Source of the DNA: Geotalea uraniireducens Rf4
Lineage (GTDB): Bacteria > Desulfobacterota > Desulfuromonadia > Geobacterales > Geobacteraceae
NCBI RefSeq assembly: GCF_000016745.1
Contig: NC_009483.1
Span: forward strand, 3,600,001-3,632,000
Reading direction: 5' to 3'
Length of the DNA: 32,000 nucleotides
Shown: in pieces, positions 4,855 to 32,000 of the stretch
Position numbering within the stretch: position 1 is the stretch's first letter
Layout of the letters: every line of letters begins with the position of its first letter
Made by a program: the position numbers and the translations under genes
The notes under the pieces: generated by a model
What the model saw: only the letters and a program-made list of their open reading frames with translations
What the model was told of the DNA's origin: nothing
Database searches by the model: none

Positions 4855-4897
4855 TTATTGCAGATTCTACTGCCTTCCGGCAGGAAACCCTGAAAAT

Positions 4898-5368: not shown

Positions 5369-5369
5369 G

Positions 5370-7650: not shown

Positions 7651-8332
7651 GGTGTCACATAAGTGAACAATGCCTCTGTTTTGCTGTCTGATCCGCGCAT
7701 AACATTCCTCAACAATAGCAGTGAGTTACGCGCGGCAATATATCATAAAATAGCTGTTTTATCTATTTGAATTTCAACAACCTGCTTGGGCGAAGCAACG
7801 GAGAAAGAACTGGGGATTGCCATATAACCCGAGAAGGACGCAGCGGAATCTGAAGAGTGGCAATCCAGGGAGCGTATGCGATTCTCGGGAGCAAGAGCGC
7901 CGAAAGCAGCTTGCTGCGGCAGTTGCATGAACGTGTATCAAGGCAGAGAGGAAAAGAAGTGCTCTGGTAGGGTTAGTCAGGAGGATGCTGCAGGTCTATT
8001 TTTTTTACGTGATCCGCGCAGATCTGAGTATCAACTCCTTCACAATATCAGCGAGAATTATGAAAAACAAAGAGCCTGAGAAAGCATGAATCTGCAGGAG
8101 GCAACGATTAGCCCTCATATTTTCATTGGTTACAAAACTGGCTTGGAGAATGGGCGTGCTAACAGCATCAGTAAGGTGGGCCGCTTTGAGCGTGAGATCC
8201 GAATGGTATGGCGGGGTCCCTTATATGACGATGAATCCTAATGGCTGAATGATAGATAATGAAAATATGAAGAAACAAGAAGAGTGTTTATAAACTGTGT
8301 GCTTGGCATAAGCACCATTCATTGGAGGTAAT

Positions 8333-9676: not shown

Positions 9677-9928
9677 CAAGGCACCGGTCTCAATCGACGA
9701 CCATGAAGGATCACCCACCCGGCAGGCATCGAGGGCAGGTGTTTTTTTCGAGAGAGAAGCGACGGGCGGCATAGAAACATACGAAGGGATGCACTGAAGG
9801 GCTTTCACGCATATGCAACTGCCAGGCTGGATGACTAACCGAGCGCGATTACTCGCACTCCAGGGAAGGGGCAGCATATTAACGATCAGTCACAGGGTCG
9901 TATATTAGGCTGGTTTTGAGGTGGTTTA

Positions 9929-11215: not shown

Positions 11216-11297
11216 AACCAGCTCAAGCTCGATCTCAAATTGATTCCAAGCTATTGAAATGAGCCATGGGTACCCATTTCTTAGGAGAAGTTAGAAA

Positions 11298-13914: not shown

Positions 13915-15147
13915 TCAACCATTGACAGGTGTCACTTCTCTTAAATCGAAATACCCATTATAGCCTTTCATATAAACTGCGGCGCGATGACCGAATAGCA
14001 GAATTGCTTCGGTTTTGGTTTCCAACTCAATATCATAAATATCCGAGGTAACCCTTTTCCCCACCGAATAGGTTTGGTTCCAGCGCTCAACGAGTTCTTG
14101 ACCATTAAGTGAGGGGTTTTTGAGTGCTGTTGTCTTTTCAGCGTCGCAATCTGGTATAGAAATTTTGGCAGCTGTTTCTCTGATGGGCATCGGTTCTTCG
14201 CTAATATCTGCGGCTTTAACGATTGGATTGGAATTCTCGACTTTATCAGCGCCTGATTCGACTTTTTGTTCAGGTAGTTCCTTAGAGCTTTCCCTAGCGG
14301 AGGCCCAATCTCTCTTAATAGAGACGACTAACTTGGTGAGAACGTCTCCTACACCTACTTCCAAAAATTCCATATCACCTTGTTCTAACAAATACATAAC
14401 ACTGTCATTCCATCTAACGCTGCTAGTGATCTGGCGAGTCAGGTTTTGGACGACTGCTTTTGAGTCGTATGGCGTCGCTGTCACATTGGATATTACTGGG
14501 ATTTGCGGCTCTAAAAGGGTAAAGCTGTCAACGTATTCTTTAAATTCCTTCTCAGCTTGTTCCATATAACGGGAATGAAAGGCTCCATTGGTGTTAAGTG
14601 GAATAAACATGATTTTTGCTTTTTCAAAAAACTGTTGAGAGTTATTGATATCTTCCTTCAATCCGGAAATGACAATTTGAGCTGAACTGTTAAGGTTTGC
14701 GATATCGATGGTGGACAGATTCGCATCTTGCAAAATCTTGAGAATTTCATTTTCCGTAGAGTTTATAATAGCGGCCATCCCACCATTTCTGGCTTGCCCC
14801 ATCAACTCCCCTCTTTTCTTAACAAGTCTGACACCATCTTCAAAACTAAATACTCCAGCAGCCTGGAGCGCGTTATACTCACCTAAACTATGTCCGGTTA
14901 AAAAATCCGGCTTTTCACCAGTATCTTGTGTCTTTCCTACATATGACAATGCATTCACAATATACATTGCAGGTTGCGTATACTCGGTCTTATTCAGCTT
15001 ATGTTCCGGATCGTTCAGACAAAGATCCTTGATCGAATATCCCAATATGCTATCCGCCATATTGGTCATAGCCGGGAAACGATCAAAAAGACCCTCACCC
15101 ATTCCTTTTCGTTGGGAGCCTTGACCTGGGAACATGTACGTCTTCAT
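13915..15147 (-). CDS. Free-standing (trans-acting) acyltransferase, malonyl-CoA:ACP transacylase type, with C-terminal extension
   Basis: GGAGGA lies 5 nt before the ATG at 15145-15147 (the track start at 15159 is less likely). Motifs are FPGQGSQ, GHSLGE (Ser codon 14887-14889) and GAFHS (malonyl-type). The core ends near ...GDVLTKLVVSIKRD, followed by about 130 extra residues. Confidence 0.9.
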   Translation of the reverse strand: MKTYMFPGQGSQRKGMGEGLFDRFPAMTNMADSILGYSIKDLCLNDPEHKLNKTEYTQPAMYIVNALSYVGKTQDTGEKPDFLTGHSLGEYNALQAAGVFSFEDGVRLVKKRGELMGQARNGGMAAIINSTENEILKILQDANLSTIDIANLNSSAQIVISGLKEDINNSQQFFEKAKIMFIPLNTNGAFHSRYMEQAEKEFKEYVDSFTLLEPQIPVISNVTATPYDSKAVVQNLTRQITSSVRWNDSVMYLLEQGDMEFLEVGVGDVLTKLVVSIKRDWASARESSKELPEQKVESGADKVENSNPIVKAADISEEPMPIRETAAKISIPDCDAEKTTALKNPSLNGQELVERWNQTYSVGKRVTSDIYDIELETKTEAILLFGHRAAVYMKGYNGYFDLREVTPVNG

Positions 15148-15182
15148 ATTTTCCTCCATAATATAGAGTTACTTTTATAAAA

Positions 15183-18100
15183 TCAGGGCATTACCATCCA
15201 GTGACTCTCTTGGGCAAAGGGATATGACGGCAAGCTTATTCTCCGTGGCTTTTTGCCTTCGTACAGCTTGTTCCAGTCTATGACAGAGCCCTTAACCCAG
15301 AGGGCTGCCAGCTTTTCATAATTCCTACTACTCATCCACTTATGGACTGCTTCCTGCTCTTTTCCGTCGGCCGGCGTTGCTGATGGCATCTTGCTATGCT
15401 TTTTGGCTTGCCCAAAGAATATCCGGGCATTGTTATTTTCTCTGTTTAAATAGCAGGTGAGTTTCTCGATCGCCTCTTTATTCGTTTTTGCTGTGAATCC
15501 TAGCCTGCTTTTCATGGCCTCACGTCCTACCTGCAACGTATAGGCAACCTGCATTAGCCTTTCATCTCCAAACGTCTCTCCTTCGAGCCACTCTATCAAA
15601 TCCTTCACACGCTCGTTCAGCCTTTCCGCATTCTGCGCCGATACCACAAATATCGCCGGCGTACCCTCGCTCACATTGCACGAGTCGTCATCTTTGCCGA
15701 CAAACTCTGCTACAACAACATGCGCGTTCGACCCACCAGCTCCAAACGATGAAACTCCCGCGATTCTCGGAGCATCGCTTTTCCACTCAGTCAATTCCCT
15801 TTGCACGACAAAAGGGGTGTTCTCGAAATCAATATGAGGGTTCAAATTTTCCGCGAAGAGGCTTGGAACGATTTTGCCGTGTTTCATTTGCAATAATACT
15901 TTGGTCAAGGCTGCGATTCCGATCGCGCATTCGCAATGACCAATGTTTGAGTTTACGGATCCTATCGCACAAAATTGTTTGTCATCTGTGTGATGTTGAA
16001 ACGCTTTGGTCAATCCTGATATTTCAACCGGGTCGCCAAGAGGTGTCCCTGTCCCGTTGGCCTCGATATAGCTAATGGATCTTGCATTTACACCCGACCG
16101 TTCTATTGCCTCCCGAATGACTTGACCCTGGGACACGGGATTCGGCGCCATGAACGCATTCGTCCTGCCACCGTTATTGATCATACTGCCCTTGATAATT
16201 CCATATATGTTGTCGCCGTCATTGATAGCCTGAGCTAAAGGTTTAAGCAGAACCGCTCCGACCCCTTCACCTGTAACAAACCCATCTGCTTCTGCTCCAA
16301 AGGCACTGCAGCGATCTGTAGCTGAAAGGACACCCAGGGCTGAGAGTATCGTATAGTGATTGGGCGACAAAATCAGATTGACACCGCCTGCGATAGCGCG
16401 ATCGCAGGCACCGCTATGGAGGCTGTCGAGCGCCAAATGGACCGCTGTCAGTGAGGAGGAACTGGCGCTATTGACAACCATACTCGGACCTTGGAAATTA
16501 TAGGTGTACGAAACTCTATTTGCGATTACAAAGGGATGACTGCCCTTGAAATAGTCTGCGTTCATTACACCAACAAAGACCCCGATTTTTCGACTATCAC
16601 AGATGGTGTCCGGCGTGTAACCCGCATTTTCAATACAGCTATAGGTTTCCTGTAAAAACAGCCTCTCCTGAGGATCCATGATCTGTGCTTCACGGGGTGA
16701 TATATTGAAAAATTGATGATCGAATTTGTCTATATCTTCTAAAAATCCACCCCACTTGCTGTACATCTTTCCTGCTTTCCCTTTCTCCTTGTCAAAATAT
16801 TCCCTCCAATTCCAACGCTCCTGCGGTATCTCGGTTATGTTGGATTTACCTTCTTTCAGATTATTCCAGAATTCGTTTATATGGCTGGCACCAGGGTACC
16901 GAACGGATACCCCGATAATCGCTATATCAGCTGGTCCTTTTTTCTTCTCAATGTTTCCATTCAAGACTGGATCTAGGTTTTTCAACTGCACAGAAGATCC
17001 TACTTTCTGCAGTGTTGCGTTTAGTATCTTGGCTATCATCTCACCTGTTTCAGTCACTACTATCGCATCGAACGATATGTAATCCGATTTTTCAACGCGG
17101 ATTTTTTTAATGACATACGCTATCTCTGTAGTCGGTCTGTAGACCGTAATGCTGTCGATCGATAAGGGCACTTTAATTTCAGGATCAACGGTAACCGGAT
17201 CGGCCATGAGATAGCAACTATTTAACAAGAGGGGATCGAATACGAGGTTCTCACTGTTTCCCCTCTTCTGACTACCTGCCATAGTAATCTTTGCAACCAA
17301 TGTGACCTTGTCATACGCATACAAAGCTTCTATTGTCTTCAGCGTTTTTTCAATTTTTATGTCATGAATCATCTTGTATATTTTTTCGATGGTTCCTGGC
17401 GCAAACATTTTAGATTGGCTAACAATGGATTGAATCTCCAATCTCTCAGGGATGCTGTCAACCGTTCCAATAAAATCTCCCGCACAGTTCCTTTCTTTAT
17501 TACTTGTACCGAAAAGAGTTTCAAAACCGTTTACCCCTTTGGACTTCACTTCAACTTCAACGGTTTCATTTTTATTCAATCCTACAGGTCCGCCGTAAAA
17601 ACGGATATTTCTGAGGCCCAGCGGGTATCCTTCAGGATTGTTTTTCAAATAAGTTTCTATAGCAAGGCAGGGGTAAGTCACTCCCATGATCGCTGGGCGT
17701 GCATACACCTGGTGGTCCTGCAAAAAAGGTTCACTACCATAAAATTCATATTTATCCGAAGGAATTGTGAGCGTTCCGCTTTCAGTACTCCAGTTTTGAC
17801 TTTTCGTCCCACCTTCAGCCAGTTTTTTCTCCAGATAACCGGCCAAGGCAATGAAGTTACTATATTCAAACAACAGGCTGGGACTTAGCGACAGTTCAAA
17901 TTGTTCCTCTATATCTTTGACCAATTCCAAAAGCTGAGAAGATTCCATGCCCAATTCTAAGAAGCCCAGATTCTCAAGCTGATCCATGTTTGTATTTACA
18001 TATTTCGCGAAAATCTTCTTCAGCGGTTCCTCTACAGAGGGAAGGCTGGCATGCCTTACGTTTCCTCCGTCTTCATGGACTGGGGAACTGATGTTGTCAT

Positions 18101-18971
18101 CCCTTTCCGCCTGTTCCGCCTTTACCCGTTCAGGGTCTATTTGGCTCGGGTCTTTCACAAGTTTGATAGTCAGCCCGCTCAGTTTTGCGGTAAGATGGCC
18201 TCCCGTGTCAAAGAAGTCCATATCTACGGTAGTAATATCATTCACTGTGCGAATCGAGGATCTTTCGATTCTCACGTAACAACGGTCCAACAATGGTCCT
18301 TTACTGTAAAAAGTCTCATAAGATAAGGGGAGATATAGATCAGCTATACTGTCAGGCATCCCCTCTCTAATCAATATCATGGATGACATAGCCGCACCAT
18401 CCATTAAAGCGGGGTGAAACAGATAATTCTGTGCCGTATCTTGGTTCGCTAGATTTGCGTTTACATCTATTAAGCAGCCGCTATCAGTTATATAAACATT
18501 GCCTGTAGCCTTTATCATCCCCTGATGGACTAATCCGGCCTTGCGCGCTTCGGAATATGTTGTCTCCATGTCATAGGTTTTGGTAGAAAGCTGCTTCACA
18601 GCTTCTACGTCAATTACCTCTTCGAGGAAATCCACTTTCTTCTGCAATTCCGCCGTCACATATAGCATCCCTGCCTGCGATTCTTTGTGGATGTCGGTCT
18701 CCACACCTGCAACACTAATCTTCCAGTTTCTTTGCTTTCTTTCGAAAGTAATTTTCACGCGGACCGGTTTTTCTTTGCTCACCACCAGTGGTTTGTATAT
18801 GGCTAACCTTTTCAAGCAGTGATCATCACTACTTAGGTTTAACCCGTCTTTCGCCAATTGATACAACATATCAATGTATGCCAACCCTGGTAATACAGAG
18901 TGACCATATACCTGGTGGCTCTTCACTATCGGGTTATCTAAGGTCAACTGGAAGTTAAATATTTTTTTCAT
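15183..18971 (-). CDS. trans-AT polyketide synthase, DH-ACP-DH*-KS(Ser/Asn variant)-flanking subdomain
   Basis: The start ATG at 18969-18971 (MKKIFNFQLTL...) is preceded by GGGGAGAG and overlaps the upstream PKS gene by 17 nt. There is no AT domain. Domain motifs are listed under the sub-features. The stop is at 15183-15185. Confidence 0.9.
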   Translation of the reverse strand: MKKIFNFQLTLDNPIVKSHQVYGHSVLPGLAYIDMLYQLAKDGLNLSSDDHCLKRLAIYKPLVVSKEKPVRVKITFERKQRNWKISVAGVETDIHKESQAGMLYVTAELQKKVDFLEEVIDVEAVKQLSTKTYDMETTYSEARKAGLVHQGMIKATGNVYITDSGCLIDVNANLANQDTAQNYLFHPALMDGAAMSSMILIREGMPDSIADLYLPLSYETFYSKGPLLDRCYVRIERSSIRTVNDITTVDMDFFDTGGHLTAKLSGLTIKLVKDPSQIDPERVKAEQAERDDNISSPVHEDGGNVRHASLPSVEEPLKKIFAKYVNTNMDQLENLGFLELGMESSQLLELVKDIEEQFELSLSPSLLFEYSNFIALAGYLEKKLAEGGTKSQNWSTESGTLTIPSDKYEFYGSEPFLQDHQVYARPAIMGVTYPCLAIETYLKNNPEGYPLGLRNIRFYGGPVGLNKNETVEVEVKSKGVNGFETLFGTSNKERNCAGDFIGTVDSIPERLEIQSIVSQSKMFAPGTIEKIYKMIHDIKIEKTLKTIEALYAYDKVTLVAKITMAGSQKRGNSENLVFDPLLLNSCYLMADPVTVDPEIKVPLSIDSITVYRPTTEIAYVIKKIRVEKSDYISFDAIVVTETGEMIAKILNATLQKVGSSVQLKNLDPVLNGNIEKKKGPADIAIIGVSVRYPGASHINEFWNNLKEGKSNITEIPQERWNWREYFDKEKGKAGKMYSKWGGFLEDIDKFDHQFFNISPREAQIMDPQERLFLQETYSCIENAGYTPDTICDSRKIGVFVGVMNADYFKGSHPFVIANRVSYTYNFQGPSMVVNSASSSSLTAVHLALDSLHSGACDRAIAGGVNLILSPNHYTILSALGVLSATDRCSAFGAEADGFVTGEGVGAVLLKPLAQAINDGDNIYGIIKGSMINNGGRTNAFMAPNPVSQGQVIREAIERSGVNARSISYIEANGTGTPLGDPVEISGLTKAFQHHTDDKQFCAIGSVNSNIGHCECAIGIAALTKVLLQMKHGKIVPSLFAENLNPHIDFENTPFVVQRELTEWKSDAPRIAGVSSFGAGGSNAHVVVAEFVGKDDDSCNVSEGTPAIFVVSAQNAERLNERVKDLIEWLEGETFGDERLMQVAYTLQVGREAMKSRLGFTAKTNKEAIEKLTCYLNRENNNARIFFGQAKKHSKMPSATPADGKEQEAVHKWMSSRNYEKLAALWVKGSVIDWNKLYEGKKPRRISLPSYPFAQESHWMVMP
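15702..16931 (-). other. PKS domain: degenerate ketosynthase (Cys replaced by Ser and first His by Asn), followed by a flanking subdomain at 15186-15701
   Basis: ADIAIIGVSVRYP. SMVVNSASSSSLTA aligns with SMAVDTMCSSSLTA, giving Ser codon AGT at 16461-16463 in place of Cys. YIEANGTGT has Asn codon 16056-16058. NSNIGHCECA is retained. The flank ends SLPSYPFAQESHWMVMP-stop. Confidence 0.85.
16977..17765 (-). other. PKS domain: DH-like variant DH* (candidate enoyl-isomerase or pyran-synthase type)
   Basis: HQVYARPAIM keeps the His (codon 17712-17714), but Gly is replaced by Ala and Pro by Met relative to HxxxGxxxxP. The second motif reads FDPLLLNSCYL, with Asn (codon 17220-17222) where DH-a and DH1/2 have the catalytic Asp. 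Confidence 0.65.
17817..18041 (-). other. PKS domain: ACP4
   Basis: LGFLELGMESSQLLELV. Ser codon at 17940-17942 (GMES instead of the usual GxDS). Confidence 0.75.
18147..18971 (-). other. PKS domain: dehydratase DH-a at the N-terminus of the second PKS protein (approximate)
   Basis: HQVYGHSVLP matches HxxxGxxxxP (His codon 18915-18917). FHPALMDGAAM has the Asp present, with the usual Q/H position occupied by Met. Confidence 0.75.
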
Positions 18972-21900
18972 CAAACTCTCCCCAGACGTTTTTAACCGAA
19001 GACTGCACAGCTTCAAGATTTATCATCTGATTATCGATCGACTTAAACCTGTCAATGAAATCGTCTATACTGTCTTCGTTAGTCGACTTCACCAGTGAGT
19101 CTTGCTGAAACGTGACAGTTCGTGATGATGCAAAGCTACGTTTATTCATTGCCGGAGCTGCCAGAGAGAACAGCCGCTGGGTATAGTTCACTTCCGGAAC
19201 AAATTCTTCCATGATCACATGGCAGTTTGTACCTCCATCGGGGAATGAATTCTGAGCAGCAATGCGCTTACGCCCCGACTCTATTAGCCAGTCGGAACAT
19301 TCCCGATTGAAAGCTATACGGGACGCGGTGAAATCGTAATGCTCAAACGGCTCCAGCGCCGATAAAAACGGCGGTATCTTCTTCTCTTCAAGGCTGAGCA
19401 TGCACCGTATGAATCCGGCCAACCCTGAAGTCAGCAGAAGGTGTCCTATATTGGGCTTTATAGATCCCACTACGCATGACTTCATTTTTTTGTCATCCAA
19501 CCGGTATATTTCCGACAGCGCTCTGATTTCTATTGAATCTACCACAGGTGAGCCGCCGCCATTGACCTCGATATAACCTATGTCTTCCGGCGTCTTCCCG
19601 CTAAGCTCCAGGGCCTCTTTCATTACCTGCTTTTGAGTCTCCATGTTAGGCGAACCAGGACCCAATGTCCTTCCATCGTTGTTCACCGCTATCGCCTTGA
19701 TGACTCCATAAATCTTATTCCCGTCCCTTACTGCATCGCTTAACCTCTTCAATACGACTACGCCTGCTCCTTCTCCCAGTACTTCTCCACCTGCTTGCTT
19801 CTCAAATATTTTGAAATCTCCGTTTTTGCTCAGTATTTTTCTGGCCTCAAACAGTCGATGGGTAAATGGATTCAATATCAGGTTTACCGCACCCGCCATT
19901 GCCATATCTATCCGTCCGTTTTTCAAGGTATCCGATGCCATCGATATTGCCGTTAATCCTGACGAACACGCGGTGTCTACCACCAGGCTCGGACCGGTTA
20001 TATTTAGAAACCGAGAAATGTTGGTCGCTAGATAGTTCTGTCCCAGCCCCAATATCGGATTAGTGGCCTCCAGAACCTTTTCGATGTCCTGAGTTATCTG
20101 GGCACGCCCTCCTAGGTAAACTCCGACCCTTTGCCCGGAGACGTCCTTACTTTCATATCCAGCGTCATAAATCGCCTTCAGACCCTCTTCCAGTACCACC
20201 CTGGCTTGCGGATCCATGATCATCGCATCGTTTTCCTTCAGCTTAAAGAACTCCGGATCAAACATATCGATGTCATCGATCCAACCGCCATAATCCCTCC
20301 TGCCATTGCTTTCCCACCGGTTTTCCGGCACCTCACGGATCGCCTTCTCCCCCTTTGCCAGCAATTCCCAATAGGCCTCTTTGGTTGGTGAATCAGGGAA
20401 CCGGCAGGATATCCCGACGACCGCAATATCTTCCGGCGCCGTGACTATTTCATTGCGAGCAATTGGCTCATTTCCGCCAAGCCCCTCAAACGCCGGCTCT
20501 TTCATCTGAGCAGTGCTGTCTTCGCTAAGTGCAGCTTCCGCGGGAGTGCTCGCTGCGAGGTCAGCCTGGAACTGATCTGCGTGATGAGCACTGAAGTAAT
20601 CCGTCAAGGCTGCCAGGGTGGTATGCTCGAAAAGCAAGGCAGGATCCAATTTGCCCTGCACTCCTTTTTCGAGTGTCTGCACCAATTGGGCGAACATGAT
20701 CGAATCGATACCGTAGTCGTCAAAGGACGTGTCTTCATCCAGTTGATCTGCCGTCAGCTTCAATTCCGTCATGAATGTGTTTCGCAGCCACTGACGGACG
20801 GACTCCTTTACACCTGCTGTCAACCGGTGCGCTGGAGGCAATTGGGGCGCAGCAGAAACAGCGCGCGCGGGTTGCAGGTCAACCTTCAGCGTCGTTTTCA
20901 ACAACTGATCATGTCTGAATTCGTGAGGAATGACGACACAGGGCAAGGACACCCTGTAGGAACCATTTTTAATAACATCCAAGAGCATTAAGCCGTTTGC
21001 GGTTGAAACAAGGGCAAGGCCTGTCTTCTTATACGCCGGGGTTTGCTGTCCGTTTGCCGCCATGCCTGTTTCGCCCCAGGCAGGCCACTGAATCGACTTC
21101 ACATAGGCATGGCCGTGGCTGGCTTGATACTCGGCGAAATAGTCCATATAGGCATTGGCCATGGCATAGTCGCTTTGACTTGTGGATAAGGTAGGGGCGA
21201 CGCTTGATATGGACGAAAACAATATGAAAAACGCCAACGGCTCGGTTTCTACTACCTTGTGCAGGGTGGCAAGGCCGGTCATCTTGGGCTCGCACACCGA
21301 CTCGATCTCCGAGTAGGTTTTGTTGAAAAACACAGGTTTTTTGCCGGTGACACCCGCGCAGTGGAATATACCGGTGAGGGGGCCGGCATGCCGATGGATG
21401 TCGTCCACCATATCCCGTAACCCGTCCTGGTCCGTGAGTGGCGTGGTGTAATAGCGGACTCGCACTCCCTGCTCGACGAAGGATTGCATGCGCCGGAGTT
21501 TTTCAGACATTTCCGGCATGTCGTTCCGTTCAAGCACCGTTTTCCACTCGGATTGTTCCGGCAATGCTTCCCGGCCCAGAATGGCGAGGTTCCGGCAGCC
21601 CTGCGAAACGAGATGCTCAGCAATCGACGCACCTATCCCGCGCGATCCGCCGGTGATGAGAATGACGTCCACGGACCGATAGCGCTCCGTTTCTGGATAG
21701 TTCTTCTCAATGTCTACATCGGTCTGACCTATCCTTAATTGGGGTTCGTACCGCCTGTCGTTTCGATAACAACTCTCGGAAACATGCTCCTGGCAGGTAT
21801 TGGCAAATTCGTTTTTGATCTGCGCCGCCAGTTTCTCCTTCATTGCCAGCGGGCAATCACTATCCATCGTGAGAGAAAGGATTTGCTTGTACTCTGAGCC

Positions 21901-24900: not shown

Positions 24901-27900
24901 GATCCGCATGCCTCCCTCTTGCCAGAGCGGCCAATTGATCGAAAAGGTTCTGCCCAGGCGTTCGTTTCTGGCCACCAGGCCGTTGCGATATGCTGCATAG
25001 GCATCCATGAAGGCGTTCGCCGCAGCGTAGTCGGCCTGACCGATATTGCCGAGAAGTCCAGCTCCGGAGGAAAACAGTATGAAGAGATCCTGGTTTAGAT
25101 GCTTCGTTTCCTGATCCAGGTTCACCAGCCCCATGACTTTGGGTGCGAGGACTTCTAAGAGCTCTTCCTGTGTCTTTTTTATGATGAAGTTGTCACGGAC
25201 GACCCCGGCCGCATGGATAATGCCGGTGAGCGTCCCGAACTCCTTCATGATGTTTTGGATCAATTCGGCAACGGCTTCGCGCCGGGTGACATCGACCTCT
25301 TTATAGACGATCCTCGCGCCCGCTCCTTCCAGTTCCTTTAACCGGGATCGTCTCTCGTCGTTGAGGGAGGACCTACCGGTAAGAACGAGGGTCACGCTCC
25401 TGACCTTATGCGCGATCTCTCCGGCGAAAATCATTCCCAGTCCTCCGGCTCCGCCGGTAATAAGGTAAACGCCGCCTTCCTTCCAGGGAATGTTTTCTTC
25501 TGCGCCCGGTACTTCCAGTTCGCTCAGCCCGGCAACAAACCTTTTGCCATCACGATAGCGAATATGAGTAGCCAAGGGATCGTGGCTGTTCTGGTTCAGT
25601 TTCTCTACGATCGATTCCGAGGTTTCCCGTGCTTCCACTTCTATCAACTGCCCGATGAGCCTCGGATTCTCCATGCGGGCGGATTTGAGGAGGCCCAGGA
25701 GGCCCGTGAACAGAAGGCCTTCGGGGTCGGCAGGCAATACGACTTGGACCAGCACGCTCCCCCGGTGCTTTTCTCTCAGAATCCCTTGGAGTTCTGCGAA
25801 CAGCCGGGCTGCATGGTCCGTGAAGCGCTCCTCTATGCCTTTTTGCTCCGATTGCAGGGCAACGCAGCGTGTCCCGCTCATCTGGCTTGTGACGGCTTCC
25901 GGAATACCGTTTTCCAGCCCGCACAACAGCACCAGATGTGTCGCCAGATCGGGCGCCGTGGCTATTTCAGCAAGAGCCTGCTCGTTCCAGACCGGCTCAA
26001 GCATCAGGGTTCCTATGCTTGCAGAGGCGCCTACTGAAGGGACCTCTCCCTCCAGGCTGCGCAACGATAGCCCCTTGATCACAACCTGCACGTTGCCGTG
26101 TTCGTCGCATACCGTGATATCTATTTTTTGCACCGCATCGCCTGGCTTGCTCCCGTTGCCGTATCGAATCAATGCCCACATCGAGGAGCTGCACCTGCCG
26201 AGGATTTCCAGTTCCTGCAAGGCAAAGGGCAGGATCGGCTTGGACGGAGCGCTGCCAGAAGCTGCCTGGCTGCCGAATGAGTCCATGAGGCCAGCGCATG
26301 CCTGGAACGCGGAATCCATGATGCTGGGATGCAGAACGAACTGATCTACCGTTTGGCAGACTGAGGAAGGCAGGGACAGCTTGGCAAGCGCCTGGTTGGC
26401 ACCGACAAAGATGTGCTCAATGCCGCGATGTCCGCTGCCATACTCGATCCCCATGGCCCTGAATCCACCATAGCATTGGGCGGGCGTCAGGGTCCCTAGG
26501 TTACACGCGGCCCGTAAGGCGCTAATATCCAACGTTGATTTCCCCGAGGAAGGCAGAAGCTTTGCCTGCCCCTGGCTATGTACCACAGTGCCTGCCTCAG
26601 GTGACTCGCTGTAAACCTCATAGCCAATCTCCCCGTTGTCTTCAGGGAAAAGACCGATATGCACCTGAACCGGCCGGTCATTGACGATGATCGGTCTTGC
26701 CCACACGACATGTTTGAGGGAGATCCCCGTCAAAGCCTGCTTCAGGCCCCCCGCAGCCCGGTCCACCGCGGCCCGCGCCATCTCCAGATACGCCACCCCT
26801 GGGAACACCCTCTCGCCCCTGACTACGTGGTCGGAAAGGAAGAATTCCTGCCCGGTAAAGGTCGAACTGAATCTCTGCTCGGTTAGGTCCGAGGTGTTCT
26901 GATGCAGCAGGGGATGTAAGGCGTTGCCGCTTCCTGGTGCCCCCTGGCCTGCAGCGTCCAACCTCTGTCCTTTGATCTCGGGCAGCCAATAGCGCTCACC
27001 GGCAAAGGGATATGCGGGTAGACTGATCCGGCGAGGGGTGCTGTCGCCGTAGAGCACGTTCCAGTCAACGGGTATTCCCTGAACCCAAAGATCCAGAACT
27101 TTTGAGTATTTTCTTTTCCTGATCCATTTGCCGATAGCTTCCTGCATGTCATCGTCAGCAGTAAACACCGCCAACATATCGTTATCGCGCTTCACCTGAC
27201 CCATGGAGAGGCCTTCGATGTCATCCTTGCCGTTCAGATAATCCTTTAGCTTCTGTTCCAGTTCACTGACCGTTGCAACGATCAAAGCCATCCGCTCTTC
27301 CATTGCTTCCCGGCCGATTTGCAGGGTGTACGCCACATCCGCCAGGTCCGCATCGGTAAAACGCTGAGAGCTTTGCGCACCCAGCAAACGCTCAACGCTG
27401 GCACGCAGCCGCTCACCGTCCCGGGCCGACAGCACAATGAGCGCGGGATGCTGGGCGTTAATGGCAACGCGGGTACGCTCTTCGTCTCCAGGAGCATATT
27501 CCTCGAGTATCACATGGGCATTGGATCCTCCTGCTCCGAAGGAAGAAATCCCCGCTATCCTCGGATACTCACGGGTTTCCCCGTCAATCTCAACAACCGG
27601 ACGTACCCATTCGGACAGCTCTTGCTGAACGGTAAAGGGAGTCTTGGCGAAATCGATGTTCGGGTTCAGGTTCACCGAGTGCAGACTCGGCACGTGGGAG
27701 CGATGTTTCATCTGCAATACGATCTTGGTTACGCCTGCTATGCCTGCTGCTGCTTCCAGATGGCCGATATTGGACTTTACTGATCCAATAGCGCAGTATC
27801 CCGTGTCGGCGGTATCCTTGTGGAAGGCCTGTGCCAGCCCCGTTATCTCTATTGGGTCGCCCAGCTTGGTTCCTGTCCCATGAGCTTCTATATAACTGAC

Positions 27901-30900
27901 TGCCCGGGCATGTATCCCGGCTTTATCCAGTGTCTCCCGGATGAGTTCACCCTGGGCGACCGGGCTGGGAACGGTATATCCGTTGGTTTTGCCGCCATGA
28001 TTGGTTCTGCTGCCGCGGATAACGGCATGAATTTGGTCGCGATCGGCGATCGCCCGGGACAGAGGCTTCAGTAAGACGACGCCCACTCCTTCCCCCGGTA
28101 CAAATCCGTTGCCGTCCAGGCCGAAGCTTTTACACTGTCCGTCGGTGGAAAGCATCTGTAGGGCGCAAAGCTCGACATAGCTCGCCGGATGCAGATACAG
28201 ATTTACCCCGCCAGCGATCGCCATCTCGCATTCTTTGTGGTGCAGATGCTCACATGCCTCATGAATTGCAGTGAGCGAGGCGGAACACATGGTGTCGACC
28301 GCCATGCTCGGACCACGCAAGTTAAAGAGATAGGAAACTCGATTTGCAACCGAGCTAAATGAGGTGCGGGGGCTGATGGTTTCACCCTGCCTCCATAAGT
28401 CAGGGCCGTATAAAGCAAAACCATTCTTGGTAATTCCGGCAAAGACGCCGACCCGGCCCTTGAACTGTGCCGCAAGCTGCTCTCTTGTGTATCCGGCATC
28501 CTCGAACACTTCCCAGCAGGATTGAATAAACAACCGTTCCTGAGGGTCGGTATTTATGGCATCTAGGGCAGAAATATTGAAAAACAACGGATCGAAATCC
28601 GCAAATCCACGCACAAAGCCGCCCCATTTGCTGTAGCTTTTTCTCATTTCCACGGCTTCCTGAGGGTCTGCATGGTAAAATCCGTCCAGCGGCCAGCGGT
28701 CTTCGGGGATCTCTGTAATACAATCCCTGCCTGCTTTTAAATTCTCCCAATAATCGCCCAGGTTATCGGCCTGGGGATAACGACCGCTCATCCCGATGAT
28801 CGCGATAGGCTCTCGATTGCCATGGTTTTCCTGAGTTCCGCTGAAACTCCGCCTGGATGTTTTCGCTATTTTAAAGGACGTAAGGACAGGGAAATCACCA
28901 TCTTGATGCAGATCCTCTGCTGACGCCTTTTGTCCTGTCGGGATCGAATCTCGAAGTCCCGTCCATTGCAGGCACCGTTGTGGATAGCCGGTGATGAAAT
29001 ACGCCGCCAAGGCATCCAGATCTTGATACTCATAAAATAGGGTTTTTGACAGCTCGCCGAAAATTTTGGCAAGCTCCTGATTCAATTGGGTGATCATGAT
29101 CGAATCAATCCCATAGCTTTCCAGAGGCTCGTGCGCATCTATCCTATGGGCCGATAATTTTACAACCCTCCCCAACAGCACCTTGAGTTGATAGACGACT
29201 TTTTCTTTGAGCACTAGAGAATCAGCTTGCAGTATCAATTCGTCACCGGGAGAAGAAGGGAGTTCCGAGATAGTATCCAGCAACTGTTCCTGTATCCGGG
29301 CTCTATTACCATGCAACACTAAGGTCTGGTCGAACCCGGCGACTAAGCCAGTATGGAATGCCTGGATGCCGGCTAGGCTCGGCAAGGGTCTTAGGCCAAG
29401 TTTGTGCTGCATCATCTTCTCTGTCTCAGCGTCGACCTGCATGCCGCCTTCCCGCCAGAGCGGCCAGTTAATAGAGAGTGTTGCACCAAAACGCTCCCCT
29501 TTCTGAACCAGGGCGTTGCGCTGTGCGGCATAACAATCCATGAATGCGTTGGCCGTGGAGTAATCTGCCTGGCCTGGACTGCCGAAGGCGCCTGCAACAG
29601 AGGAAAACAAAACGAAAAAGTCCAGGCCAAGATCCTTGCTGGCGTAATCCAGGTTCACGAGTCCCGCGACTTTTGGGGACAGCACTTCGTGAAATTCTTC
29701 CACCGTCTTCTTGATGATGAAATTGTCTTTATTTACGCCGGCGCTATGAATTATCCCGTTGAGGTTCCCATGATCATCCACGATGGATTTAACCAACTGC
29801 TCGACCGAGTTCCTTTCAGTTACGTCCGTTTGCCGGTATTGGGCCCGCGCACCCAGGCTTTCCAGCTCTTGGAGTAGTGCCTGTTTCGCATCGCCGTGCG
29901 CGGACCTGCCGGTCAGGATGAGGGTGATGCCGTTTGCCTTCCGAGCCAGTTCTTTGGCAAAAATAAACCCTAAGCCGCCTGCTCCGCCGGTGATGAGATA
30001 GACGCCTTGCTCCTTCCACTGCATGCCCACGGAGGCCTGGGAGACCCCTATTTCCTTCCAGCGGACGACCTGCCGTTTCCCCTCCTCGTAGCGGACCCGA
30101 TCGTCGGCAGGACACCGGCTGTTGTATTTCAGCTTTTCTACTGTTTTGTCTGCATCTTCCGTCGAATCCACTGCGATCAGTTGGCCGGTCAGCTTGGGAT
30201 TCTCCTGGTGCGCTGTTTTTAGTACTCCATTGAGCGCGGCCAGAAGATTTCCCTCCCCATTATTGGGAATTACCATCTGAACCAGAACTTTGCCTTTAGG
30301 TTTCTCATTCAGCAGGCTCTGGATTTGTTCGAATACCTGCTGTGCATAGACCGGGAAGCGCTTTTCCATCTCCCGCTCTTCAGAGCTGATGATGAGGCTA
30401 CGAACTCCGTCCATTTGAACTTCAACTCCTTCTTTCAGGACATTGCTCATCTGGCAAAGGATGACCAGATGCCCGGCATACTCCGGCGCTCTGCCTTCCT
30501 TAACATCGGCCGGTGCCTCCCAGACCGGCTTAAGCACCAAGGTTTCTTGATCCGCCGCTGCGCCGACCGTGCCCTGCCCGCCTTCGAGTACCCGGAAAGA
30601 GAGTCCCCTCATACGGACGCAAACGCTCCCGTTCTCATCGCATAGATCGACATCAACGTTGTTAGCCCTGCCCGCGGCTTCGCCGCTGTTGCCGGACCGG
30701 ATCACTGCCCACATCAAAGAGGTGCAGCGCTGGAGAATTTCAAGCTGGTGCAGAGTAGACGGAACCATCGGTTTTGGCGCCGCCATGCTGGCAGGCTCTC
30801 CAACGATCAGGAGTGAGGCCTGCATTGCGGAATCGAGCATGCTGGGATGCAGAAGGTAATGATCCTCTGTTTCTGAAATCGAGGAAGGCAGCGAGAGTTT

Positions 30901-32000
30901 TGCAAGCACAGTAGTGGATCCTGCGTAGGCCCTCTCGATGCCTCGATGTCTCGCGCCGTACTCGCTTCCCATCGTTTTAAACGCATCGTAACACTGGGCA
31001 GAACTCAACTCCCGGTCGCACTCTGATTGCACGTCCAGGAGATTTATAACCGGAATATCCGCAACCGGACCGAACAGGGCACTGCCCTGGCTGTTGATAA
31101 TGGTCTCAGCGCTATGCTCTGTCGATTCGCTGTAAATCTCATAGCCAATCTCGCCGTTATCTTTGGGGAAAAGGCCGACATGCACCTGAACCGGTTGGCC
31201 GGTTACGGTAATCGGCCTTGCCCACACGATGTTTTTAAGGGAGATACCCTTCTGAGACGGGTTCCATGACCCCGCGGCCCGGTCCACTGCTGCCCGGGCC
31301 ATCTCCAAATAAGCCGCCACGGGAAGAATTTTCTCGCCGCTCACTGCGTGGTCCGCCAGGAAAAATTCCTCCCCGGTAAAGATCGAGCTGAACCTTTGCT
31401 CGGTCAGGTCCGAGGTGTTCTGGTGCAGCAGAGGGTGAATCGAATGTGCAACCGGCAGTAGCGCCGATGCGCCGGCGGTCTGGGCGATCTCCGGCACCCA
31501 ATACCGGTCTCCGGCAAAGGGATAGGTGGGAAGGCTGATCCTGTGAGGCTTGGCTGCACCGTACAACCTGTTCCAGTCAAAATTGAGTCCCTTGACCCAA
31601 AGATCCAGAAGGCGCGCGTACTTTCCTTTGCTGACCCAGGCGTCGATTGTTTTTGCCATGTCCTCATCGACGGCGTAAAGCCATGCACTGTCGTTATCCC
31701 TGTCCCGTTTAACATGCCCCTTATGAAGATGTTCAAGGTCACTCTTGCCATCCAGATACCCACTCAGTTTCTCTTCCAGGTCCTTGATGGACGCGACAAC
31801 CATTGCCAATCGTGCGTCCATGGCTTCACGGCCAACCTGCAGCGTGTACGCCGCATCTGCCAGATCGGCATCGCTGAATTGCCGTTCCTGGATCGCCCCC
31901 AGCAATCGCCGCGCCTGCTCCTCAAGCCGCTTTTCATTCTTCGCCGACAATACGACGATCGCCGGATGCTGTGCGCTGACCCGGACCGGGATCCGCTCCC
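18955..32000 (-). CDS. trans-AT polyketide megasynthase, 5'-partial: [KS-flank]-DH-KR-ACP-KS-DH-KR-ACP-KS-KR-ACP-KS0-tail
   Basis: One uninterrupted minus-strand frame runs from the window end to the stop at 18955-18957. The first in-window ATG (31950) lies inside a KS-flanking subdomain and the frame is open to nt 32000, so the true start is upstream. There are no embedded AT domains. Each KS is followed by a flanking subdomain of about 170 aa ending in PxYPFAGxRYW. Confidence 0.95.
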   Translation of the reverse strand, partial: ERIPVRVSAQHPAIVVLSAKNEKRLEEQARRLLGAIQERQFSDADLADAAYTLQVGREAMDARLAMVVASIKDLEEKLSGYLDGKSDLEHLHKGHVKRDRDNDSAWLYAVDEDMAKTIDAWVSKGKYARLLDLWVKGLNFDWNRLYGAAKPHRISLPTYPFAGDRYWVPEIAQTAGASALLPVAHSIHPLLHQNTSDLTEQRFSSIFTGEEFFLADHAVSGEKILPVAAYLEMARAAVDRAAGSWNPSQKGISLKNIVWARPITVTGQPVQVHVGLFPKDNGEIGYEIYSESTEHSAETIINSQGSALFGPVADIPVINLLDVQSECDRELSSAQCYDAFKTMGSEYGARHRGIERAYAGSTTVLAKLSLPSSISETEDHYLLHPSMLDSAMQASLLIVGEPASMAAPKPMVPSTLHQLEILQRCTSLMWAVIRSGNSGEAAGRANNVDVDLCDENGSVCVRMRGLSFRVLEGGQGTVGAAADQETLVLKPVWEAPADVKEGRAPEYAGHLVILCQMSNVLKEGVEVQMDGVRSLIISSEEREMEKRFPVYAQQVFEQIQSLLNEKPKGKVLVQMVIPNNGEGNLLAALNGVLKTAHQENPKLTGQLIAVDSTEDADKTVEKLKYNSRCPADDRVRYEEGKRQVVRWKEIGVSQASVGMQWKEQGVYLITGGAGGLGFIFAKELARKANGITLILTGRSAHGDAKQALLQELESLGARAQYRQTDVTERNSVEQLVKSIVDDHGNLNGIIHSAGVNKDNFIIKKTVEEFHEVLSPKVAGLVNLDYASKDLGLDFFVLFSSVAGAFGSPGQADYSTANAFMDCYAAQRNALVQKGERFGATLSINWPLWREGGMQVDAETEKMMQHKLGLRPLPSLAGIQAFHTGLVAGFDQTLVLHGNRARIQEQLLDTISELPSSPGDELILQADSLVLKEKVVYQLKVLLGRVVKLSAHRIDAHEPLESYGIDSIMITQLNQELAKIFGELSKTLFYEYQDLDALAAYFITGYPQRCLQWTGLRDSIPTGQKASAEDLHQDGDFPVLTSFKIAKTSRRSFSGTQENHGNREPIAIIGMSGRYPQADNLGDYWENLKAGRDCITEIPEDRWPLDGFYHADPQEAVEMRKSYSKWGGFVRGFADFDPLFFNISALDAINTDPQERLFIQSCWEVFEDAGYTREQLAAQFKGRVGVFAGITKNGFALYGPDLWRQGETISPRTSFSSVANRVSYLFNLRGPSMAVDTMCSASLTAIHEACEHLHHKECEMAIAGGVNLYLHPASYVELCALQMLSTDGQCKSFGLDGNGFVPGEGVGVVLLKPLSRAIADRDQIHAVIRGSRTNHGGKTNGYTVPSPVAQGELIRETLDKAGIHARAVSYIEAHGTGTKLGDPIEITGLAQAFHKDTADTGYCAIGSVKSNIGHLEAAAGIAGVTKIVLQMKHRSHVPSLHSVNLNPNIDFAKTPFTVQQELSEWVRPVVEIDGETREYPRIAGISSFGAGGSNAHVILEEYAPGDEERTRVAINAQHPALIVLSARDGERLRASVERLLGAQSSQRFTDADLADVAYTLQIGREAMEERMALIVATVSELEQKLKDYLNGKDDIEGLSMGQVKRDNDMLAVFTADDDMQEAIGKWIRKRKYSKVLDLWVQGIPVDWNVLYGDSTPRRISLPAYPFAGERYWLPEIKGQRLDAAGQGAPGSGNALHPLLHQNTSDLTEQRFSSTFTGQEFFLSDHVVRGERVFPGVAYLEMARAAVDRAAGGLKQALTGISLKHVVWARPIIVNDRPVQVHIGLFPEDNGEIGYEVYSESPEAGTVVHSQGQAKLLPSSGKSTLDISALRAACNLGTLTPAQCYGGFRAMGIEYGSGHRGIEHIFVGANQALAKLSLPSSVCQTVDQFVLHPSIMDSAFQACAGLMDSFGSQAASGSAPSKPILPFALQELEILGRCSSSMWALIRYGNGSKPGDAVQKIDITVCDEHGNVQVVIKGLSLRSLEGEVPSVGASASIGTLMLEPVWNEQALAEIATAPDLATHLVLLCGLENGIPEAVTSQMSGTRCVALQSEQKGIEERFTDHAARLFAELQGILREKHRGSVLVQVVLPADPEGLLFTGLLGLLKSARMENPRLIGQLIEVEARETSESIVEKLNQNSHDPLATHIRYRDGKRFVAGLSELEVPGAEENIPWKEGGVYLITGGAGGLGMIFAGEIAHKVRSVTLVLTGRSSLNDERRSRLKELEGAGARIVYKEVDVTRREAVAELIQNIMKEFGTLTGIIHAAGVVRDNFIIKKTQEELLEVLAPKVMGLVNLDQETKHLNQDLFILFSSGAGLLGNIGQADYAAANAFMDAYAAYRNGLVARNERLGRTFSINWPLWQEGGMRIDAKTESMSLQRTGMISLQTQTGIRALYQCLACGRDQVMPLEGDVERLRAVLLDRQDATETSTLSCAAEEGKTVPAVAQDLLQEKATDYLKKLISSVIKYPASKIDANAPMEKYGIDSIMVMQLTNQLEKAFGSLPKTLFFEYQTIQALSGYFLESHRDQLMGLLEIEQKPTTAADSSQNSVAAPKSVQTAALNRRQARFACRAESQEEKANEESDIAIIGVSGRYPGAENIGEFWKNLRDGKDCITEIPKERWDHSLYFDADKNKKGKTYSKWGGFLDGVDRFDTLFFNITPREAEILDPQERLFLQCVYETLENAGYTREVLGTGLDGNVGVYVGVMYEEYQLYGAQETALGRPLALSGSPSSIANRVSYFCNFHGPSMAVDTMCSSSLTAIHLACQSLQRGGCEVAIAGGVNVSVHPNKYMFLGQGKFVSSKGRCESFGEGGDGYVPGEGVGAVLLKPLAKAVADGDQIYGVIKASTINHGGKTNGYTVPNPNAQASVIGRALQQSGVHPRTISYIEAHGTGTSLGDPIEIAGLAKTFQEHTKEKQFCSIGSAKSNIGHCESAAGIAGVTKVLLQLKHRQLAPSLHSEVLNPNIDFSTTPFVVQQQLAEWKRPVVEINGQTREYPRIAGISSFGAGGSNAHVVIEEYIPEGGERIPVRVSAQHPAIVVLSAKNEKRLEEQARRLLGAIQERQFSDADLADAAYTLQVGREAMDARLALVVASIKELEEKLSGFLDGTNDIEDLYKGNVKRDNDSAWLYAVDEDMAKTIDAWVSKGKYARLLELWVKGMHFDWNRLYGAAKPRRIGLPTYPFAGERYWVPEMAQSSVAGVAPAVVSDSQRERVILIKDWQQKNAGAASDIPSGLIIVLGTAATAELAAELFSQRTDIRAIHVVHDALSSSDAIPTDFYSASAGEDLYHQIRERRLNRKLLGVIDLTAYDSEYERSVAVESGKIAFLQKLIEYDRSERFTLLQVTHALHAFHLATTTLQGARLAGLYRMLGSEYKQILSLTMDSDCPLAMKEKLAAQIKNEFANTCQEHVSESCYRNDRRYEPQLRIGQTDVDIEKNYPETERYRSVDVILITGGSRGIGASIAEHLVSQGCRNLAILGREALPEQSEWKTVLERNDMPEMSEKLRRMQSFVEQGVRVRYYTTPLTDQDGLRDMVDDIHRHAGPLTGIFHCAGVTGKKPVFFNKTYSEIESVCEPKMTGLATLHKVVETEPLAFFILFSSISSVAPTLSTSQSDYAMANAYMDYFAEYQASHGHAYVKSIQWPAWGETGMAANGQQTPAYKKTGLALVSTANGLMLLDVIKNGSYRVSLPCVVIPHEFRHDQLLKTTLKVDLQPARAVSAAPQLPPAHRLTAGVKESVRQWLRNTFMTELKLTADQLDEDTSFDDYGIDSIMFAQLVQTLEKGVQGKLDPALLFEHTTLAALTDYFSAHHADQFQADLAASTPAEAALSEDSTAQMKEPAFEGLGGNEPIARNEIVTAPEDIAVVGISCRFPDSPTKEAYWELLAKGEKAIREVPENRWESNGRRDYGGWIDDIDMFDPEFFKLKENDAMIMDPQARVVLEEGLKAIYDAGYESKDVSGQRVGVYLGGRAQITQDIEKVLEATNPILGLGQNYLATNISRFLNITGPSLVVDTACSSGLTAISMASDTLKNGRIDMAMAGAVNLILNPFTHRLFEARKILSKNGDFKIFEKQAGGEVLGEGAGVVVLKRLSDAVRDGNKIYGVIKAIAVNNDGRTLGPGSPNMETQKQVMKEALELSGKTPEDIGYIEVNGGGSPVVDSIEIRALSEIYRLDDKKMKSCVVGSIKPNIGHLLLTSGLAGFIRCMLSLEEKKIPPFLSALEPFEHYDFTASRIAFNRECSDWLIESGRKRIAAQNSFPDGGTNCHVIMEEFVPEVNYTQRLFSLAAPAMNKRSFASSRTVTFQQDSLVKSTNEDSIDDFIDRFKSIDNQMINLEAVQSSVKNVWGEFDEKNI
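19201..20433 (-). other. PKS domain: non-elongating ketosynthase KS0 (Cys kept, first His replaced by Asn)
   Basis: EDIAVVGISCRFP; VDTACSSG (Cys codon 19966-19968); YIEVNGGGS instead of EAHGTGT (Asn codon 19561-19563); KPNIGH retained. An 81-aa tail with no recognisable domain follows (18958-19200). Confidence 0.85.
20581..20817 (-). other. PKS domain: ACP3
   Basis: FDDYGIDSIMFAQL. Ser codon at 20701-20703. Confidence 0.85.
20911..22383 (-). other. PKS domain: ketoreductase KR3 including a long structural subdomain; no DH in this module (approximate)
   Basis: VILITGGSRGIG, HCAGVTGKKPVF (no Asp at the position where KR1 and KR2 have KDN/RDN), SQSDYAMANAYMD. Confidence 0.75.
22428..22940 (-). 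repeat. Intragenic repeat, copy A (KS2 C-terminus and flanking subdomain)
   Basis: It aligns with 31482-32000. Positions 22775-22940 are base-for-base identical to 31835-32000 (166 nt, offset 9,060). The remainder is roughly 85% identical by eye, with one 6-nt indel. Confidence 0.9.
22954..24258 (-). other. PKS domain: ketosynthase KS2 (elongation-competent triad)
   Basis: SDIAIIGVSGRYP; VDTMCSSS (Cys codon 23743-23745); YIEAHGTGT; KSNIGHCESAAG; ends NAHVVIEEY. Confidence 0.9.
24436..24669 (-). other. PKS domain: ACP2
   Basis: MEKYGIDSIMVMQL. Ser codon at 24550-24552. Confidence 0.85.
24766..25938 (-). other. PKS domain: ketoreductase KR2 including the structural subdomain (approximate)
   Basis: GVYLITGGAGGLG, HAAGVVRDNF, GQADYAAANAFMD. 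Confidence 0.8.
26047..26916 (-). other. PKS domain: dehydratase DH2 (approximate)
   Basis: HPLLHQNTSDL; HVVRGERVFP (His codon 26827-26829); LHPSIMDSAFQ. Confidence 0.8.
27496..28812 (-). other. PKS domain: ketosynthase KS1 (elongation-competent triad)
   Basis: EPIAIIGMSGRYP start; VDTMCSAS (Cys codon 28285-28287); YIEAHGTGT; KSNIGHLEAAAG; ends GGSNAHVILEEY. Confidence 0.9.
28987..29217 (-). other. PKS domain: ACP1
   Basis: LESYGIDSIMITQL. Phosphopantetheine Ser codon at 29101-29103. Confidence 0.85.
29296..30468 (-). other. PKS domain: ketoreductase KR1 including the structural subdomain (approximate)
   Basis: GVYLITGGAGGLG Rossmann motif, HSAGVNKDNF, and the catalytic Tyr in GQADYSTANAFMD. 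Confidence 0.8.
30586..31437 (-). other. PKS domain: dehydratase DH1 (approximate borders)
   Basis: HPLLHQNTSDL start; HAVSGEKILP matches HxxxGxxxxP (His codon 31348-31350); LHPSMLDSAMQ matches DxxxQ. Confidence 0.8.
31482..32000 (-). repeat. Intragenic repeat, copy B (flanking subdomain of the KS lying beyond the window end)
   Basis: See copy A. The identity is still perfect at the window edge, so the repeat probably extends further. Confidence 0.9.

Follow-up and report, generated by a model that had tools for sequence, protein, structure and literature searches.

We describe here the last 18 kb (positions 13915-32000, minus strand) of a 32,000-nucleotide stretch of Geotalea uraniireducens Rf4 (contig NC_009483.1, positions 3,600,001 to 3,632,000; hereafter the window), which by its domain content is the downstream end of one very large trans-acyltransferase (trans-AT) polyketide synthase (PKS) operon. 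We consider it likely that two modules, each forming an E olefin, are followed in this line by a split dehydrating bimodule of type A and by an enoyl-isomerase-type domain that shifts a double bond, and that the line ends on its fourth acyl carrier protein (ACP4) in front of a vestigial ketosynthase (KS). With dehydratase (DH), ketoreductase (KR) and enoyl-isomerase-type (EI) domains abbreviated, the visible line reads ...DH-KR-ACP / KS-DH-KR-ACP / KS-KR-ACP-KS0 // DH-ACP-EI-KS(dead), where KS0 denotes a non-elongating KS and the double slash a gene boundary. The main point of interest is termination, as the line closes with a vestigial KS that no carrier protein follows, and no release enzyme is in view.

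Three co-directional and tightly packed open reading frames (ORFs) make up the region, two encoding megasynthases and one a discrete acyltransferase (AT); all their features lie on the minus strand. The large PKS ORF (18955..>32000) is visible over 4347 codons as the 3' 13 kb of a giant gene, and because it is free of stop codons up to 31998, the start of the gene lies beyond the window. This agrees with the original prediction, an earlier reading of the bare letters by a model, which had placed the beginning of the assembly line outside the window. By accession numbering, the large ORF is ABQ27260 of G. uraniireducens Rf4. The second PKS ORF (15183..18971; 1262 aa) is identical to ABQ27259.1 and shares 17 nt at its start with the end of the large ORF. 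The discrete trans-AT ORF (13915..15159; 414 aa) begins 24 nt past the stop codon of the second PKS and matches ABQ27258.1, which is annotated 4 aa shorter. A weak hint at a Geobacter-like host had been drawn earlier from a flank rich in GEMM-I elements, and that guess was right, since six proteins of the window (ABQ27254, WP_049818938, ABQ27256, ABQ27257, WP_198134480 and ABQ27259) are identical to proteins of strain Rf4.

Pfam analysis of the large ORF returned three KS, three KR, two DH and three ACP domains together with three RhiE-like KS linkers, and the 1262-aa ORF contained a DH, an ACP, a second PS-DH match (and thus two double-hotdog domains), a KS and one linker. Acyl_transf_1 was confined to the 414-aa ORF and had no match in the 5609 aa of megasynthase, across which four RhiE-like linkers were matched; the roughly 20 kb of recovered upstream sequence likewise held no AT domain. 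This Pfam content and the AT matches and motifs given below confirm the trans-AT class, in which KS domains lack an integrated AT, and the malonyl-type AT at the operon end, both of which had been claimed, and the recovered sequence gave no sign of a cis-AT hybrid. No thioesterase (TE), condensation, methyltransferase or enoylreductase family was matched in the visible part of either megasynthase, as had also been stated before. The best homologues of the locus proteins were 40-58% identical, so that high identity to a characterised cluster over the whole locus was not seen. A flanking subdomain ending in PxYPFxxxxxW had been assigned to each of four KS domains. Four such motifs are present, but they belong to the KS just upstream of the window, KS1, KS2 and KS4, and KS3 has no flank.

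The AT scored 332 bits on TIGR00128 (FabD equivalog), against a cut-off of 261, carries the motifs GHSLGE and GAFHS, and matched PksC (2.9e-97), the AT of PksE (1.1e-96) and DisD (7.5e-90). It is by these matches a malonyl-type enzyme of the FabD/PksC/DisD kind, predicted to load the ACPs in trans. A proofreading acyl hydrolase was considered and rejected, as the hydrolase-type PksD was matched at only 8.5e-18, far below PksC, PksE and DisD. Past a low-complexity linker the AT bears a C-terminal domain of about 70 aa (13927..14142), which is also found in the solved FabD-like protein 3G87 (2e-18).

The visible part of the large ORF begins with the flanking subdomain of the KS just upstream of the window (31486..31998), which ends in PTYPFAGDRYW, followed by DH1 (30580..31449) with intact HxxxGxxxxP and HPSMLDSAMQ motifs, the catalytic part of KR1 (29335..30081), B-type with its Asp in HSAGVNKDNF, and ACP1 (28993..29214; GIDSIM). 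The elongating KS1 (27661..28806; DTMCSAS, HGTGT, NIGH) and its flank (26929..27498; PAYPFAGERYW) open the next module, which continues with DH2 (26044..26928; catalytic His and Asp kept), the catalytic part of the B-type KR2 (24799..25548; HAAGVVRDNF) and ACP2 (24439..24678), called from Pfam and its motif. KS2 (23119..24273; DTMCSSS, HGTGT, NIGH) is also of the elongating kind and is followed by a flank (22432..22956) ending in PTYPFAGERYW. The two KS-DH-KR-ACP modules with B-type KR would each add one E double bond, with malonyl units delivered in trans by the PksC/DisD-like AT whose gene closes the operon. The original prediction had counted two enoyl-forming modules, one hydroxyl-forming module and one non-elongating dehydrating step, and both the Pfam order and the catalytic motifs agree with that count.

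The hydroxyl-forming module leads into a unit that runs across the boundary between the two megasynthase genes. The catalytic part of KR3 (21019..21798) lacks the B-type Asp (HCAGVTGKKPVF) and reads GVTGKKPVF where KR1 and KR2 have the Asp-bearing GVNKDNF and GVVRDNF; it is called A-type because of this absence. After ACP3 (20593..20811; Pfam and motif) comes KS3 (19174..20448), whose triad reads Cys-Asn-His (DTACSSG, EVNGGGS, NIGH): the Cys is kept and EVNGGGS replaces HGTGT. In place of a flanking subdomain, KS3 carries a C-terminal tail of about 70-85 aa (18955..19173) ending in SSVKNVWGEFDEKNI (...SSVKNVWGEF), and the motif ...SS(V/F)xN(V/F)WGE(F/L/I) was common to four aligned KS0//DH junctions, that of the window and three in related loci. 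The tail is a probable KS-to-DH docking element, and such an element is mentioned for gladiolin in a paper on hangtaimycin (PMC8456789). The second PKS opens with a DH (18102..18971) that keeps its catalytic His and Asp and has the PksL DH 5E1V as its best solved match (1.5e-44), followed by ACP4 (17832..18023; LGMESS). In type A dehydrating bimodules the order is KS-KR-ACP-KS0//DH-ACP, the split falls after KS0, the KS0 triad is Cys-Asn-His and not Cys-His-His, and the KR is A-type (PMC8456789). The locus shows this domain order, a split after KS0 (gene boundary 18955/18971), the Cys-Asn-His triad and an A-type KR, and by these features the KR3-ACP3-KS0//DH-ACP4 unit is a known split type A dehydrating bimodule. 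KS2, the A-type KR3 and ACP3 would extend the chain and reduce it to a hydroxyl, KS3 should merely hand the chain on because its triad reads Cys-Asn-His, and the N-terminal DH of the second PKS would then dehydrate the chain on ACP4. The outcome of this step is usually linked to a Z olefin, and type A bimodules have been associated with Z olefins (PMC8456789).

Between ACP4 and KS4 lies a second double-hotdog domain (16977..17756), which had been overlooked, leaving the original domain list incomplete. Its best solved match is the EI domain of PksR, 4U3V, at 2.4e-8 with the single sequence and at 5.3e-16 with a profile of ten family members; with that profile the runner-up was the CurH DH (4.2e-11), which leaves 4U3V five orders of magnitude ahead of any dehydratase. 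Domains that shift double bonds retain the catalytic His and have the Pro of HxxxGxxxxP replaced by a hydrophobic residue (PMC11672594), and they lack the Gln or His of DxxxQ/H (PMC9600693). In the present domain the His is kept, and is invariant in the ten family members, the Pro is changed to Met (HQVYARPAIM), and NSCY stands at the position of the dehydratase DxxxQ, where PksR EI has NSAY. The position of the domain after an ACP is conserved in 12 homologues. Because 4U3V is the best match and these motif changes are all present, the domain reads as an enoyl-isomerase, which would move the double bond from α,β to β,γ. An unbranched conjugated polyene had been predicted earlier; the polyene logic holds, but with an EI-type domain after the bimodule the last double bond is probably brought out of conjugation with the thioester.

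The other feature overlooked so far is the state of KS4 (15837..16931), in which DTMC has become NSAS, HGTGT has become NGTGT and GSVKSNIGH has become GSVNSNIGH, that is, Cys is replaced by Ser, the first His by Asn and the Lys by Asn. The Cys, both His and the Lys are kept in all 11 homologues with the DH-ACP-EI-KS architecture and are lost only in the Rf4 protein and its 98%-identical relative. KS4 has also diverged faster than the other domains of the second PKS: it is 56% identical to its homologues, which are 66% identical among themselves, and the DH, ACP, EI and flank show no such deficit. The flanking subdomain after KS4 (15195..15659) ends in PSYPFAQESHW, and the protein stops 6 aa later with no ACP, TE or docking tail. 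The homologues, by comparison, continue after the KS with ACP-TE (P0015), ACP (P0008), DH-KR (P0012) or a DH (P0002 and P0003, in P0003 by way of a separate next subunit). With the nucleophile and two further catalytic residues lost, the last KS is, to judge from these residues, catalytically dead, and no carrier protein follows it. The simplest and most likely reading is that the line was shortened, that its last KS became non-functional and that its chain ends on ACP4; the KS would then be a vestige from an ancestor that was longer and had the form ...KS-ACP-TE or ...KS//DH-KR-ACP. The window contains no TE or other release domain able to release the chain, and release would depend on a function encoded outside it.

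The course of the operon upstream of the window could be followed in metagenome assemblies. The last 141 nt of L049, the second contig of one assembly, are identical to the first 141 nt of L023, the contig that matches the window. L049 encodes P0003, which is paralogous to the second PKS (54% identity) and has an active KS; the orthologue of P0003 in Rf4 is ABQ27261, two accession numbers above ABQ27259. A further contig, L051, encodes the exact Rf4 RefSeq protein WP_049818939.1 (its version of ABQ27261), and the next gene on it begins DH-KR-ACP-KS-flank-DH-KR-ACP-KS. The overlap, the orthology and this layout together make the operon order upstream of the window readable: as pieced together from these contigs, it is ...KS-DH-ACP-KS-KR-ACP-KS0 // DH-ACP-EI-KS // DH-KR-ACP-KS-DH-KR-ACP-KS-, which leads into [DH-KR-ACP-KS-DH-KR-ACP-KS-KR-ACP-KS0] // DH-ACP-EI-KS(dead) and then the AT in the window. 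The contigs thereby add to the line ABQ27261, a paralogue of the last subunit that is active, and two additional DH-KR-ACP modules. Counting these two modules, five consecutive olefin-forming extensions are predicted, and the product would be an unbranched polyenoyl chain.

Other searches did not extend the operon. The window end gave matches of at most 58% identity in species-representative genomes, its exact 53-mer was absent from the metagenome contigs scanned, and a protein scan of those contigs with DH1-KR1 reached at most 51% identity. When the first 1099 aa in the window or the upstream L049 protein served as query, no homologue exceeded about 60% identity or about 2200 aa in length. 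The N-terminus of a DH is split between ABQ27261 and the large ORF by a non-coding insert, which has an imperfect direct repeat of about 25 nt on its two sides. The insert measures about 320 nt in the Rf4-type contig (L051, 4147-4463) and about 560 nt in the relative (L049, 13958-14519), and the ORF downstream of it starts anew at an ATG that is preceded by the ribosome-binding site GGAGGAG.

Relatives 98% identical to the locus were found in four metagenome assemblies and in one read-archive (Logan) assembly. Four contigs have the length needed to display the gene order, and all four share the order PKS, AT and then the convergent efflux and radical SAM genes. Against these relatives the ratio of non-synonymous to synonymous substitution (dN/dS) was 0.18 for the large ORF (its last 1620 aa) and 0.39 for the second PKS. 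The locus carries clear evidence of block duplication and mosaic origin, as seen at the nucleotide level. The DNA of the flank upstream of the window (31468-31994) and that of the flank after KS2 (22414-22934) are about 90% identical at a distance of about 9 kb, which points to recent duplication of a module block or to gene conversion. The GC content of both copies of the KS0//DH-ACP-EI-KS block and of the AT is 41-48%, and that of the DH-KR-ACP modules 54-60% (13915-20448 versus 20449-32000, and L049), which suggests blocks of different origin.

Several observations weigh against the reading of a line that shifts its last double bond and ends on ACP4. The assignment of the EI-type domain draws on distant similarity (2.4e-8) and on motifs, and pyran synthases likewise lack the catalytic Asp. 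As every contig of the 98% relatives breaks inside the repeated KS-flank, the stretch that joins the recovered upstream contigs to the window might hide extra modules; a TE, a hydrolase or still more modules may be encoded further upstream, beyond the recovered 20 kb. The gene order of trans-AT clusters, moreover, need not match the biosynthetic order. Finally, KS4 differs from the 98% relatives by only 3 synonymous and 1 non-synonymous changes, too few for a selection test on KS4 alone. Three other explanations can be put forward. A line that continues past the second PKS, with the ACP4 chain passed to a subunit encoded upstream, KS4 and its flank serving as mere scaffold or dock and an upstream TE releasing the product, would fit with the cluster start lying outside the recovered sequence and with the small change in KS4 between relatives, by which its fold may still be needed; bypass of inactive KS domains by ACP-to-ACP transfer or skipping has been proposed in other trans-AT lines (PMC9600693). 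The second PKS nevertheless stops 6 aa past the flank motif without a docking tail, where about 35-45 additional residues are present in P0003 and P0005, two homologues that likewise end just past the flank, and the recovered upstream genes are collinear with the window (in the order ProtA, ABQ27261, large ORF, second PKS), so we regard continuation as unlikely.

The other two explanations are less probable still. The second double-hotdog domain could be a pyran synthase or an inactive DH relic, since it shares the missing Asp and its similarity to 4U3V is modest. This alternative is rather improbable, because with the family profile the EI leads 5HQW and 5J6O, deposited as 'putative polyketide synthase' and presumably including structures of pyran synthases, by 8 to 13 orders of magnitude; on these scores the pyran synthase was rejected. 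The invariant His, the N-S-x-Y motif shared with PksR EI and the position kept after the ACP in the 12 homologues also speak against it, and the visible modules leave no free hydroxyl for an oxa-Michael ring closure. That the locus is what remains of a horizontally acquired cluster, decaying and no longer functional, could be argued from the dead last KS, the broken outer-membrane efflux protein (OEP) gene adjoining it, integrase, insertion-sequence and toxin-antitoxin debris 6-12 kb away, the insertion that splits the DH between ABQ27261 and the large ORF, and the GC mosaic. Reading frames are, however, intact over more than 17 kb, all catalytic motifs outside KS4 are present, and together with the dN/dS values given above this argues against a dead cluster; the split gene restarts behind its ribosome-binding site, and the arrangement is conserved in several environmental relatives. 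We therefore hold decay to be very improbable and retain the line that ends on ACP4 before a vestigial KS. A more specific form of it can be put forward only tentatively: a naturally shortened trans-AT line with a vestigial KS and no thioesterase, which would release a β,γ-shifted polyenoic acid from its last ACP by a mechanism undescribed for the class, with a hydrolase acting in trans or the C-terminal AT domain as candidates for the release function. If true, this would give the first polyketide from a metal reducer of the Geobacteraceae.

The genes beside the PKS were also surveyed. A convergent operon (8333..13819, plus strand), conserved beside the PKS in the 98% relatives, encodes a B12-binding radical SAM enzyme, the broken OEP gene, an EmrA-type adaptor (exact match to ABQ27256) and an EmrB-type DHA2 pump (exact match to ABQ27257), and may serve export and tailoring of the polyketide. 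The radical SAM enzyme (WP_049818938; 8333-9676, plus strand), which heads this efflux operon, fell below all NCBIfam cut-offs, the best being HpnJ-like and BchE-like, and a tailoring role for it is possible. A 51-aa ORF on its 5' side (8086-8241) was considered as an obvious precursor of a ribosomally synthesised and post-translationally modified peptide and rejected, as its sequence has no suggestive features. The OEP gene (9929-11013, plus strand) consists of two overlapping ORFs; 654 nt of it (10270-10923) are absent from the 98% relatives, whose ORF has only 213 aa, and neither lineage appears to have an intact gene.

Mobile-element and defence debris (3321-6252, plus strand) separates the island border from the efflux operon; it is composed of an AbiEi antitoxin (ABQ27254), a shortened AbiEii-family toxin (WP_198134480; 212 aa, where cluster relatives have 311 aa), an AEP-TOTE fragment and a second, truncated integrase. 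A P4-type integrase (1797-3197) adjoins a degenerate tRNA-like sequence with anticodon CCC (1672-1737, minus strand; 20.6 bits against an Rfam threshold of 29, no ARAGORN call), which is possibly an attachment-site remnant at the island border. The GEMM-I-rich flank proposed earlier was borne out by Rfam, which called three tandem c-di-GMP-I-GGC aptamers (509-588, 1050-1128 and 1293-1372, minus strand) at 64-65 bits against a gathering threshold of 59, each with a GC-rich hairpin and a T-run behind it. An ORF with a signal peptide (ATG at 380) follows the third aptamer and continues beyond the first position of the window.

The locus belongs to a known class as an orphan member, is part of a complete genome that is already public, and contains no new module type. 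Its value is that of a genome-mining lead and an evolutionary example, not of a new mechanism. As a lead it offers a concrete, mostly intact target in the cultivable type strain Rf4, and the predicted long polyene should be easily spotted by ultraviolet absorption; as an example it joins near-identical KS-flank repeats, a duplicated low-GC bimodule-EI block and a terminal KS that apparently decayed after the line was shortened. To our knowledge, no polyketide has been isolated from Geobacteraceae. Our literature search returned no report of a product of this cluster, nothing naming G. uraniireducens together with trans-AT, nothing under the guessed locus-tag prefixes Gura_308 to Gura_311 and nothing for the sample accessions; on trans-AT PKSs of Geobacter, only a computational mention of a predicted glutarimide type was found in the literature searched.

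Among known systems, the predicted glutarimide-type PKSs noted in the genus Geobacter, without species (PMC7930024), are of the same genus, trans-AT and computationally catalogued (PMC7930024; PMC10574677); they are defined by a conserved block of five initial modules that includes an amidotransferase and a branching module, and in the Rf4 line such a block would sit at the start, upstream of the sequence recovered here. The bacillaene synthase of Bacillus (pksX/bae) is likewise trans-AT, with a discrete PksC-type AT and consecutive KS-DH-KR-ACP polyene modules. Its PksN/PksR junction, a split KS0//DH-ACP bimodule followed by an enoyl-isomerase, resembles the visible segment, and the likeness extends to the best solved matches, the PksL DH and PksR EI, and to the many homologues annotated as PksN or PksM. 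To judge from the following differences, the locus nevertheless does not appear to be a bacillaene cluster: Bacillus homologues share only about 40% identity with it, the second PKS ends after the KS4 flank with no terminal TE in the window, neither the window nor the 20 kb recovered upstream holds nonribosomal peptide synthetase modules or β-branching genes, the KS after the EI is dead and the protein ends there, and the host is a Gram-negative anaerobe. A global transPACT survey found polyene module blocks shared between the bacillaene and thailandamide synthases and described the shortening of assembly lines as a common evolutionary pattern (PMC7930024). The uncharacterised DH-ACP-EI-KS subunits P0002-P0015 from Firmicutes (Paenibacillus, Bacillus and others) and metagenomes have the same domain order and are 40-54% identical over the full length; in all of them the KS is still active and is followed by ACP-TE, ACP or further modules, whereas the Rf4 protein ends after its dead KS. 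The type A bimodule has been dissected in HtmA1 of hangtaimycin and is also present in bacillaene, difficidin, batumin, kirromycin and gladiolin, with the same order, split, KS0 triad and A-type KR (PMC8456789). Compared with these, the Rf4 line has an EI-type domain following the ACP, and it contains the unit twice, the second copy being formed by ABQ27261 and the preceding subunit.

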